From Escherichia phage vB_EcoM-PM133, in sequence record MZ234052.1: DNA of 64,000 nt; one strand, 5' to 3'. The translations under genes and the position numbers were made by a program. Shown one piece after another: positions 6,033 to 9,703 of this stretch. The notes beneath the pieces were generated by a model, which did not search any database, was not told the DNA's origin, and saw only the letters and a program-made list of their open reading frames with translations. Numbering within the stretch: the first letter of the stretch is position 1; each line of letters opens with the position of its first letter.

Positions 6033-7544
6033 TTATAAATTAACTGTTTTCATTACGTAATTAAATTTTTCATCTGCGTAGCGCTGAATACGATCAATGC
6101 CGTGTTTTAAAAGATAGTTCAAATGAACGTATTTCTTTTTCGTATTAGCAGATTTTGGCTTAACGCCACAATCATCTATGAGGTCCCAGACTGTTGCGAT
6201 TGTTTTAGAACCATGCTTACGTAATACACGACCGATTGTTTGTAATACAATGATTTTTGATTTAACACCGTGTGCTAAAACAACGTGATGCAGATTTTTA
6301 ACTGAAATACCAGTAGAAAATACACCATAACTAGCTACTATAATTATTCCTTTACCGTTTTCAGCTAAGGTTTTCATTATATTGCGGGTTTCGGTATCAA
6401 CTTCCCCTGATACGTAATAAACTTTATCGTATTCATTTTTAATTAAATCGAAAATAGCTTTACCATGCGATACATGTTTAAACATGACAAAAGCGTTTTC
6501 ATCTTTTTGTGCAAGCTTAATAGCCAATTTAGCGATCCATTTATTTCTTTTACTAAGCCCAGTAATAATTTTTATTTCTTCTTGGTAAGTTTTTCCCTTT
6601 AATTTAGTAGTGAACTCATCGGGATAGCGAAGAAAAATACTATTAATTTTTAACTCAGTTACTTGTCCATCTTCCATTAATTTAGAGGTCGTTACTGGCT
6701 TAAATATTTCACCAAACATTCCAACATACTGCATGATATTGGCTTTGCCATCACGTAATGAACCAGACAAACCAAATTTGAACATGCAGTTATTTAAACC
6801 TGATATGATAGATGAAATACTTTTTCCTGTAGCAAGATGACATTCATCATTCATCATCATTCCAAACTGTGAGAACCATTCTTTCGGTTGTTTTACTACA
6901 GTTTGCCATGTACCAACGACGACTGGTGCATCATTTTTATATTTATCATCTTTTGATGCTCCGCCACCAATTTTCTTTATCATTGCATGGCTGAATAAAC
7001 GATAGTCGACGAAGTCATCAGCCATCTGAGTTGTTAGAGCAGTTGTTGGAACAATGATAAGAATTTTACCTTCATAATTTTCCAAATAATATCGCGCAAG
7101 CAAAGCTTGAATTAACGATTTACCAGCGGATGTTGGAAGATTAAGAATTCTACGACGATTAACTAATCCTTCGAACACTGCATCTTTTTGATACCAGTGT
7201 GGTTCAATTCTTTTATTTCCTGAATAGATTTCTAATTTAGAAAGCCATTCATCAAAATCTTTTCTTGATAATTCTTCTTTTTCGTTAATCTGTGGGTCAA
7301 TCCAGGCTTTATAGCCAAAGTTATCACAGAACTTTTTAATTTGCCCGACTAAGCCGAATGGAAGAAGACGATTATAATCTAACAGACGGATTCGTCCATC
7401 CCAGTGGCCATATCTGTACTTCGGATTAAAACGATACCCATCAGCTTCAAAGCTAAAGAAATCACGGAGTTCATGAAATGTACTTTCTTCACAATCAATT
7501 CTCACGTGACTAAAATCATAAAAATGTACTTTAATGTCAGTCAT
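6033..7544 (-). CDS. uvsW: UvsW SF2 DNA/RNA helicase
   Basis: 503-aa ORF with Walker A (PTSAGKS) and DECH box; recalled T4 UvsW. Confidence 0.9.
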   Translation of the reverse strand: MTDIKVHFYDFSHVRIDCEESTFHELRDFFSFEADGYRFNPKYRYGHWDGRIRLLDYNRLLPFGLVGQIKKFCDNFGYKAWIDPQINEKEELSRKDFDEWLSKLEIYSGNKRIEPHWYQKDAVFEGLVNRRRILNLPTSAGKSLIQALLARYYLENYEGKILIIVPTTALTTQMADDFVDYRLFSHAMIKKIGGGASKDDKYKNDAPVVVGTWQTVVKQPKEWFSQFGMMMNDECHLATGKSISSIISGLNNCMFKFGLSGSLRDGKANIMQYVGMFGEIFKPVTTSKLMEDGQVTELKINSIFLRYPDEFTTKLKGKTYQEEIKIITGLSKRNKWIAKLAIKLAQKDENAFVMFKHVSHGKAIFDLIKNEYDKVYYVSGEVDTETRNIMKTLAENGKGIIIVASYGVFSTGISVKNLHHVVLAHGVKSKIIVLQTIGRVLRKHGSKTIATVWDLIDDCGVKPKSANTKKKYVHLNYLLKHGIDRIQRYADEKFNYVMKTVNL

Positions 7545-7573
7545 GTCTAAATACCATGTAATAAATATATCTA

Positions 7574-7581
7574 TATTTATA
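7574..7581 (-). promoter_or_regulatory. late promoter TATAAATA upstream of uvsW
   Basis: Plus-strand tatttata at 7574-7581, about 30 nt upstream of the uvsW start. Confidence 0.5.
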
Positions 7582-7594
7582 CTGAGGAAATATT

Positions 7595-8275
7595 ATGATA
7601 GATAAAGATTATATTGCAGAGCTGAAGGCTCTTGATGATAACAAAGAAGCTAAAGCTAAATTAGCTGAATATGCTGAACAGTTTGGTATAAAGGTCAAAA
7701 AGAATAAATCTTTTGATAATATCGTTGTTGATATTGAAGAAGCCCTCCAGAAGCTCGCTAGTGAACCTATGCCGGAGACTGATGGGTTATCTATTAAAGA
7801 CTTAATTGATGCTGCTGATGCTGCAGAGGGGTTAAAATATGACGATGAAGAAGTCAATCCAGAAGCAGCACTTTTGATTGATTCTCCGGTTAAATCTGAC
7901 ATTAAAATTGAAGTAGTAGAAACAGATAAAATTCCTGAAAATACCACTGTTTTAATTGAAGATACTCCTTTTGTTGAAGAAAAATTCGAACAGGCTGTAG
8001 CTGAGATTATTGAATCTGAAAAGCCGTCTGTATTTACTCTTCCGGAAAACTTTAGCCCGAATCTTCAGTTGATTGGAAAAAATCCAGGATTCTGTACTGT
8101 TCCTTGGTGGATTTATCAATGGATTGCTGAAACTCCTGATTGGAAATCTCACCCAACTAGTTTTGAACATGCGTCAGCACACCAAACTTTATTTAGCTTA
8201 ATTTATTACATTAACCGTGACGGATCAGTTTTAATTCGTGAAACACGCAACTCTTCTTTCGTAACATTAAAATAA
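7595..8275 (+). CDS. inh: Inh, inhibitor of prohead protease gp21
   Basis: 226-aa ORF at the conserved position upstream of hoc; length matches T4 Inh. Confidence 0.7.
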   Translation: MIDKDYIAELKALDDNKEAKAKLAEYAEQFGIKVKKNKSFDNIVVDIEEALQKLASEPMPETDGLSIKDLIDAADAAEGLKYDDEEVNPEAALLIDSPVKSDIKIEVVETDKIPENTTVLIEDTPFVEEKFEQAVAEIIESEKPSVFTLPENFSPNLQLIGKNPGFCTVPWWIYQWIAETPDWKSHPTSFEHASAHQTLFSLIYYINRDGSVLIRETRNSSFVTLK

Positions 8276-8284
8276 GGATAACTT

Positions 8285-9703
8285 ATGACTTTTACAGTTG
8301 ATATAACTCCTAAAACACCGACAGGGGTTATTGATGAAACTAAGCAGTTTACTGCTACACCCAGTGGTGAAACTGGAGGCGGAACTATTACATATGCTTG
8401 GACTGTAGATGATGCTCCACAAGATGGAGCTGAAGCAACTTTTGATTATGTATTAAAAGGACCTGCTGGACAAAAGACTATTAAAGTAGTTGCAACAAAT
8501 ACAGTTCCAGATACTGATGCTGAAACAGCAGAAGCTACTACAACTATCACAGTTCAAAATAAGACACAAACAACTACTTTAGCTGTAACTCCTGGTAGCC
8601 CTGATGCTGGAGTGATTGGAACTCCAATTGAATTTACCGCTGCCTTAGCTTCACAGCCATCAGGTGCAAACGCTACGTATCAATGGCACGTTGACGGTTC
8701 TCCTGTAGACGAAGCAACTGACGCTACATTCAATTACACTCCTGACACAAGCGGAGTTAAAAAAATCAAGTGTGTAGCTCAAGTAACTGCGGCAGATTAT
8801 GATGCACTAAGCGTTACTTCTAATGAAGTATCATTGACTGTTAATAAAAAGGAGCAGACAACTACTTTGGCAGTAACTCCTGATAGTCCTCCAGCGGGAG
8901 TAATCGGAACCCCAGTTCAATTTACTGCTGCCTTAGCTTCTCAACCTGATGGAGCGTCTGCTACGTATCAGTGGTATGTAGATGATTCACAAGTTGGTGG
9001 AGAAACTAACTCTACATTTAGCTATACTCCAACTACAAGTGGAGTAAAAAGAATTAAATGCGTAGCCCAAGTAACTGCTGAAAATTACAATGAAAAGGAA
9101 GTTACTTCTAATGAAGTATCATTGACAGTTAATAAGAAGACAATGAATCCACAGGTTACATTGACTCCTCCTTCTATTAATGTTCAGCAAGATGCTTCGG
9201 CTACATTTACGGCTAATGTTACGGGTGCTCCAGAAGAAGCACAAATTACTTACTCATGGAAGAAAGATTCTTCTCCTGTAGAAGGGTCAACTAACATATA
9301 TACTGTCGATACCTCATCTGTTGGAAGTCAAACTATTGAAGTTACTGCTGTCGTTACTGCAACTGATTACGATAGCAAAACTATTACAGCAGAAGGTCAA
9401 GTTCAGGTAACTGATAAAGTTGCTCCAGAACCAGAAGGTGAACTACCTTATGTTCATCCTCTTCCACATCGTACTTCAGCTTATATCTGGTGCGGTTGGT
9501 GGGTTATGGATGAAATCCAAAAAATGACCGAAGAAGGTAAAGATTGGAAAACTGAAGATCCAGACAGTAAATACTACCTGCATCGTTACACTCTTCAGAA
9601 GATGATGAAAGACTATCCAGAAGTTGATGTTCAAGAATCACGCAATGGATACATCATTCATAAAACTGCTTTAGAAACTGGTATCATCTATACCTATCCA
9701 TAA
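8285..9703 (+). CDS. hoc: Hoc highly immunogenic outer capsid protein, with an extra tandem Ig-like domain
   Basis: 472-aa ORF with Ig-like repeats and C-terminal capsid-binding region (YIWCGWWVMDEIQKM...IIYTYP); about 96 aa longer than recalled T4 Hoc (376 aa). Confidence 0.85.
   Translation: MTFTVDITPKTPTGVIDETKQFTATPSGETGGGTITYAWTVDDAPQDGAEATFDYVLKGPAGQKTIKVVATNTVPDTDAETAEATTTITVQNKTQTTTLAVTPGSPDAGVIGTPIEFTAALASQPSGANATYQWHVDGSPVDEATDATFNYTPDTSGVKKIKCVAQVTAADYDALSVTSNEVSLTVNKKEQTTTLAVTPDSPPAGVIGTPVQFTAALASQPDGASATYQWYVDDSQVGGETNSTFSYTPTTSGVKRIKCVAQVTAENYNEKEVTSNEVSLTVNKKTMNPQVTLTPPSINVQQDASATFTANVTGAPEEAQITYSWKKDSSPVEGSTNIYTVDTSSVGSQTIEVTAVVTATDYDSKTITAEGQVQVTDKVAPEPEGELPYVHPLPHRTSAYIWCGWWVMDEIQKMTEEGKDWKTEDPDSKYYLHRYTLQKMMKDYPEVDVQESRNGYIIHKTALETGIIYTYP

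Follow-up and report, generated by a model that had tools for sequence, protein, structure and literature searches.

The hoc locus

The window analysed here is the whole 64,000-nucleotide stretch of DNA from Escherichia phage vB_EcoM-PM133 (MZ234052.1), and the feature under study is an open reading frame of 472 codons plus a stop codon, found in the list of open reading frames (Table 1). A phmmer search matched its product to the Hoc protein of bacteriophage T4 (PDB 5vf3_Z, 376 aa) with an E-value of 1.6e-224. The product also matches PHROG 1149, "Hoc-like head decoration", with an E-value of 5e-141, and it has Pfam matches to PKD, Ig_2, Ig_3, and I-set. The order of genes around it is the T4 arrangement, namely uvsW, inh, hoc, 24.3, 24.2, rnlB, gene 24, and gene 23, and this order agrees with the annotated loci of T4, T6, slur14, and UGKSEcP2. 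An earlier reading of this DNA made from the sequence alone (hereafter, the sequence-only reading) had named the gene hoc, and the phmmer match, the PHROG match, and the order of the locus all agree with that name.

Table 1. Coordinates of hoc and of the domains of its product in the window.
Feature	Position	Strand	Evidence
hoc, highly immunogenic outer capsid / head decoration protein	8285..9703	+	ORF, phmmer, PHROG 1149, synteny
Ig-like domain 1 (D1; aa 1-94)	8285..8566	+	aligns with T4 1-94; AlphaFold2 beta-sandwich, pLDDT 83-93
Domain-2 unit 1 (D2a; aa 95-190, type A), extra relative to T4	8567..8854	+	repeat unit
Domain-2 unit 2 (D2b; aa 191-286, type B)	8855..9142	+	near-identical alignment to T4 95-190
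Ig-like domain 3 (D3; aa 287-376)	9143..9412	+	aligns with T4 191-280; Pfam Ig_3 / I-set at 289-373; AlphaFold2 strands to 376
C-terminal capsid-binding domain (aa 377-472)	9413..9700	+	aligns with T4 281-376

Two further features of this locus differ among the records compared. In the window, the interval between uvsW (6033-7544, minus strand) and inh (7595-8275, plus strand), at positions 7545-7594, is without a homing endonuclease gene. A 618-nt homing endonuclease gene lies just upstream of inh in T4 strain 147 (segE), T6, and Bas39, and it adjoins uvsW where uvsW is annotated. In the sequences compared, this mobile gene near hoc is therefore polymorphic, being present in some phages and absent from others. 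In the records of T6 (NC_054907; L026:1719-2850) and Bas39 FriedrichMiescher (L027:1719-3138), hoc is annotated as two overlapping coding sequences, "Hoc part 1" and "part 2". This split annotation implies a frameshift, and the cause could be either genuine pseudogene formation in a non-essential gene or an error in sequencing.

Domain architecture of the window Hoc

The alignment of the window protein to T4 Hoc falls into two blocks, in which residues 1-117 align with T4 residues 1-117 and residues 191-472 align with T4 residues 95-376. Thus, the window protein exceeds T4 Hoc by exactly one 96-aa unit. [quoted passage not shown] That length is borne out by PDB 5vf3_Z and by the T4 hoc coding sequence of 1131 nt, that domain count agrees with PMC10385173, and the alignment identifies the extra domain as a 96-aa domain-2-type unit. 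T4 Hoc (PDB 5vf3, 8t1x) and the window Hoc share their locus, and their D1, D3, and capsid-binding domains are collinear and nearly identical. T4 domain 2 is the counterpart of window unit 2, to which it is 91% identical in nucleotide sequence (dS 0.25). The two proteins differ in the domain-2-type unit that the window Hoc carries between D1 and the T4-type domain 2, which gives it four Ig-like domains rather than three.

Only a few substitutions separate residues 377-472 from residues 281-376 of T4 Hoc, the segment defined as the T4 capsid-binding domain (PMC10385173). When searched alone, this segment matches PHROG 1149 (E 1e-54) and PHROG 21694 (E 7e-43), and it is almost invariant across 48 homologues. 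Each domain-2 unit, when searched alone, matches one and the same segment of the PHROG 1149 profile.

We modelled the window Hoc with AlphaFold2 using 48 homologues and obtained a mean pLDDT of 83.4. The model predicts four Ig-like beta-sandwich domains over residues 1-376, with pLDDT values above 83, and the pattern of strands is identical in units 1 and 2. The C-terminal domain is poorly modelled, with pLDDT values below 50 at residues 381-403. A Foldseek search of the PDB ranked four-Ig arrays highest, namely Dscam1, ICAM-5 D1-D4, and Sidekick, and RB49 Hoc (3shs) is also among the matches.

A tandem duplication of domain 2

A direct-repeat search of the gene revealed a 288-nt direct repeat in which positions 8549-8836 and 8837-9124 are 74% identical. 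Likewise, Tandem Repeats Finder reports a repeat at 8570-9139 with a period of 288, 2.0 copies, 76% matches, and a score of 665. When the protein is compared with itself, the best offset is exactly 96 aa, at which 72 of 96 residues are identical for units that start at residues 93-95. We adopted the units given in Table 1, which are adjacent and in frame, measure 288 nt each, and are 74% identical in DNA. The sequence-only reading had placed two adjacent Ig-like domains at residues 93-189 and 190-285 (nt 8561-9139); the self-comparison confirms the pair, and the limits are right within the ambiguity of the register. The remaining pairs of Ig-like domains within the window Hoc share only 29-37 identical residues, so units 1 and 2 resemble each other far more than their common fold alone would lead one to expect. 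The tandem internal duplication in the window Hoc is therefore real, and the gene is almost certainly a Tequatrovirus hoc allele that carries the domain-2 module twice, as 96-aa units in tandem, in the order D1, D2a, D2b, D3, and capsid-binding domain.

The protein identity of these two neighbouring Ig-like domains (8567-9142) is 75%, which is unusually high for adjacent Ig domains. According to PMC4660218, adjacent homologous domains of multidomain proteins have in general diverged from each other, presumably as a safeguard against misfolding. Neighbouring units with 75% identity would offer a natural test case for the avoidance of misfolding.

Divergence of the two units

Units 1 and 2 differ at 74 of 288 nucleotides, and 43 of these differences fall at third codon positions. 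By codon, there are 32 synonymous differences and 24 amino acid changes, and the method of Nei and Gojobori yields a dS of 1.12, a dN of 0.17, and an omega of 0.15. Both units are thus under purifying selection. The longest identical run between them is 26 nt. The amino acid differences lean toward loops (15 of 43 loop positions as compared with 9 of 53 strand positions), a marginal tendency that is suggestive only (Fisher p = 0.058).

When D1, D3, and the C-terminal domain of the window Hoc are compared with those of other Tequatroviruses, dS ranges from 0.06 to 0.38. Given that dS between the two units is 1.12, the unit types must have separated long before the alleles in which they are found diverged.

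Distribution of the two-unit allele

The window hoc gene is 100% identical in nine GenBank phage genomes, including that of vB_EcoM-CHD2BS1, and these nine records form a single submission series (vB_EcoM MZ2340xx). The full-length 1419-nt gene is also found at 93-99% identity in phages from many laboratories and hosts, among them UPWr_E4, PYps55T, a51, G4498, UAB_60, PST, and HP3. The other 472-aa Tequatrovirus alleles (among them those of vB_EcoM-CHD2BS1, UPWr_E4, PST, HP3, G4498, and moskry) are identical to the window allele or 93-99% identical to it, carry two units, and show no difference of substance from it. The GenBank record for moskry has a repeat_region annotated inside hoc.

With unit 1 as the query, a search hit 616 records, which together contained 890 matches. 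When 60 records were sampled at even spacing, 30 of them showed at least two unit matches. These figures put the share of Tequatrovirus records with two domain-2 units or more at roughly 35-50%, a rough range that is bracketed by the sample and by the overall matches and that counts unit matches per record.

Among the best-scoring 120 clusters of a large protein collection, Hoc is 376 aa long in 77, 472 aa in 29, and 568 or 570 aa in 8. Intact reading frames of 376, 472, 570, and 664 aa correspond to one, two, three, and four domain-2 units, respectively, and the spacing of the units is always exactly 96 aa. The 1713-nt hoc gene of UGKSEcP2 (L003:2213-3925) is intact and encodes a 570-aa protein with three domain-2 units. 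The 1995-nt hoc genes of slur14 (L001:2215-4209) and Sfk20 (L002:2219-4213) are likewise intact and encode 664-aa proteins with four. These three Hoc proteins share with the window Hoc the unit, the 96-aa period, and the type of the first unit. They differ from it in carrying one or two further unit types (C and D), both of which the window Hoc lacks.

The window hoc is thus an ordinary, common, and already deposited allele, and variation in the number of Hoc domains is already known. We found no description of a domain-2 copy number of one to four within Tequatrovirus in the open-access literature that we searched.

Unit types and changes in copy number

Clustering of 186 units from 130 Hoc proteins yielded four main types, which we call A, B, C, and D. 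Window unit 1 is of type A, and window unit 2 is of type B, the type found in T4. Arrays with a single unit consist of type C in 43 clusters, type B in 30, type A in 8, and type D in 3. Arrays of more than one type have the compositions CB (15), AB (11), ACD (3), ABD (3), AD (3), ABC (2), AC (2), ABCD (2), and BD (1). Across the 130 proteins, type A always stands first in its array or alone, and in none of 27 arrays does it follow another unit. Type D always stands last or alone, and in none of 12 arrays does it precede another unit. In most arrays the units form an ordered subset of A-B-C-D, and the CB arrays of 15 clusters are the exception. The closest relatives of window unit 1 are themselves first units, namely those of UGKSEcP2 (dS 0.014), slur14 (dS 0.156), and L007 (dS 0.17); the dS between window unit 1 and T4 domain 2 is 0.86.

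Ordered subsets of A-B-C-D fit a model in which unequal crossing-over would have removed units from an ancestral array. A model of pure deletion does not account for the CB arrays or for the mosaic units, and assembly from divergent domain-2 alleles may also have taken place.

A one-unit change can be followed in the hoc gene of locus L004 (3153-4283), which encodes a 376-aa protein. Through D1, this gene has 1 mismatch in 270 nt relative to the window. From about nucleotide 325 onward, it follows the window sequence at an offset of 288 nt, and each stretch of 30 nt has 0-2 mismatches. The region of the joint resembles unit 1 first and then unit 2, although it also contains a few private substitutions. 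As read from these matches, L004 hoc is the window allele minus unit 1, and its hybrid joint points to the gain or loss of one unit by unequal recombination. The D3 of L004 is only 93% identical to that of the window, although its D1 matches.

The ends of the units are highly conserved in DNA. D1 closes with a sequence ("ACAGTTCAAAATAAGACA") similar to that at the unit ends ("ACTGTTAATAAAAAG" and "ACAGTTAATAAGAAGACA"), so short homologies were available for the first duplication event. The number of units would shift between one and four in the population when homologous recombination takes place unequally between these conserved ends, and the ends used would be those that encode "...VTSNEVSLTVNKK / QTTTLAVTP...". 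The two units of the window Hoc are old paralogues or allelic cassettes, both kept by purifying selection.

Fibre length and adhesion

Hoc serves as a T4 display platform for vaccines and as a model protein for the adherence of phages to mucus. The fibre formed by the three Ig-like domains and the capsid-binding domain of T4 Hoc is 180 Angstrom long (PMC10385173). The binding of mucin by Ig-like domains has been shown for the Hoc proteins of T4, PNJ-6, and PNJ-9, and in PNJ-9 Hoc the binding of MUC2 has been mapped to S183, L184, and T185 of domain 2 (PMC11853027). The window Hoc has the residues N-E-V-S-L-T at positions 180-185 and again at positions 276-281, such that S-L-T is kept in both units.

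Given its near-identity to that of T4, the unchanged C-terminal domain would still seat the window Hoc at the centres of gp23 hexamers. The fibre of the window Hoc would be about one Ig domain longer than that of T4, or roughly 40-45 Angstrom more, and two surfaces of the domain-2 type, each with S-L-T, would raise its reach or its avidity for mucin glycans. In view of published work on Hoc, a longer fibre with a second domain-2 adhesion surface is plausible; the sequence-only reading had likewise linked the extra domain to a lengthened capsid fibre and to adherence. Natural alleles with one to four units provide a ready series with which to determine the effect of fibre length and domain valency on adhesion, gut persistence, and immunogenicity, and the number of Hoc units matters for the choice of therapeutic T4-like phages.

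Origin and maintenance of the extra unit

The probability that the repeat is an assembly artefact, or that it arose by very recent replication slippage in the window isolate, is negligible. Assembly errors can occur at tandem repeats, and all nine identical records belong to the one MZ2340xx submission series. However, 74 of 288 nucleotides differ between the copies (dS about 1.1), no identical run is longer than 26 nt, and the reading frame is intact. Furthermore, the same 1419-nt architecture is present at 93-99% identity in phages from many laboratories (PST, HP3, a51, G4498, UAB_60, and UPWr_E4), and a 472-aa Hoc is found in 29 of the best 120 clusters. We rejected mis-assembly and recent slippage on the basis of the divergence between the copies. 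The sequence-only reading had dismissed both for the same reason, citing many synonymous differences, and these are borne out by the 32 synonymous codon differences and by the prevalence of third-position changes. Accounts of how the two units came together are a different matter. During co-infection, recombination out of register could have brought in the extra unit from a divergent hoc allele, in which case the two units would once have been alleles of a single domain and would only later have come to lie in tandem. All four types also occur as the sole domain 2 of 376-aa Hoc proteins, as the counts of single-unit arrays above show, the dS between the units (1.1) far exceeds the divergence of the flanking domains (0.06-0.38), hoc alleles are mosaic, as the identical D1 and 93%-identical D3 of L004 illustrate, and the CB arrays break the A-B-C-D order. 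These observations make capture a possible but on balance doubtful origin, set as they are against the strict placement of type A (never after another unit in 27 arrays) and type D (never before one in 12 arrays) and against the prevalence of ordered A-B-C-D subsets, which is what losses from one ancestral array are expected to produce. Capture and duplication within the lineage are rivals with regard to history; with either, the outcome is a tandem duplication of domain 2.

With regard to function, the extra domain could be a neutral spacer that has no effect on adhesion, its copy number drifting since hoc is non-essential. We consider this unlikely. The gene is dispensable in the laboratory (PMC10580926), the copy number varies freely from one to four, and frameshifts divide hoc in two in the records of T6 (RefSeq) and Bas39. 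Against this, both units have been held under purifying selection (omega 0.15) with their frames intact over a dS of about 1, and the lean of the differences toward loops described above, no more than suggestive (p = 0.058), points the same way. A more far-reaching possibility, to which we give somewhat less than an even chance, is that domain 2 of Tequatrovirus Hoc is a standing copy-number polymorphism of four ordered, ancient cassettes (A-B-C-D, present as one to four units) that would be maintained and reshuffled by unequal recombination and tuned by selection on fibre length, glycan avidity, or escape from anti-Hoc antibodies. If it is true, this ordered-cassette polymorphism would be a phage counterpart of the bacterial Ig-repeat adhesins of variable length. 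The population pattern of ordered ancient domain-2 cassettes is the sole part of this work that is possibly worth a short comparative study.

Hoc proteins of other lineages

Variation in the string of Ig-like domains extends beyond Tequatrovirus domain 2. A published survey of 650 Hoc homologues describes strings of one to ten Ig-like domains (PMC10385173). The Hoc of a Klebsiella phage has been reported to carry an additional Ig-like domain, and domain number varies widely among Hoc proteins (PMC13435897). The Hoc of Serratia phage Muldoon has 10 Ig domains, and that of PNJ-9 is without domain 3 (PMC13435897, PMC10385173, PMC11853027). The comparison in PMC13390416 covers two 376-aa Hoc proteins only and so does not bear on domain number.

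Duplications of domain 3 surfaced among 20 related IMG/VR loci. In Klebsiella phage Marfa (L011:2922-4337, 471 aa), a domain-3-type unit is duplicated, with 72 identities in 90 residues at an offset of 94. The Hoc of Dhakavirus IME341 (L008:2922-4340, 472 aa) likewise has an extra domain-3-type Ig unit. Since close relatives of both phages have hoc genes of 1134 nt, these domain-3-type duplications are independent. Thus, Marfa and IME341 have duplicated a domain-3-type unit, whereas the window Hoc has duplicated domain 2. As in the window Hoc, the Hoc proteins of Marfa, IME341, Klebsiella phage PMBT63, Serratia phage Muldoon, and PNJ-9 combine a conserved capsid-binding domain with a variable string of Ig-like domains. 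A T4-like contig from IMG/VR (L017:717-4040) contains a 1107-aa open reading frame that ends in the Hoc C-terminal motif. Its product is probably a many-domain Hoc like that of Muldoon.
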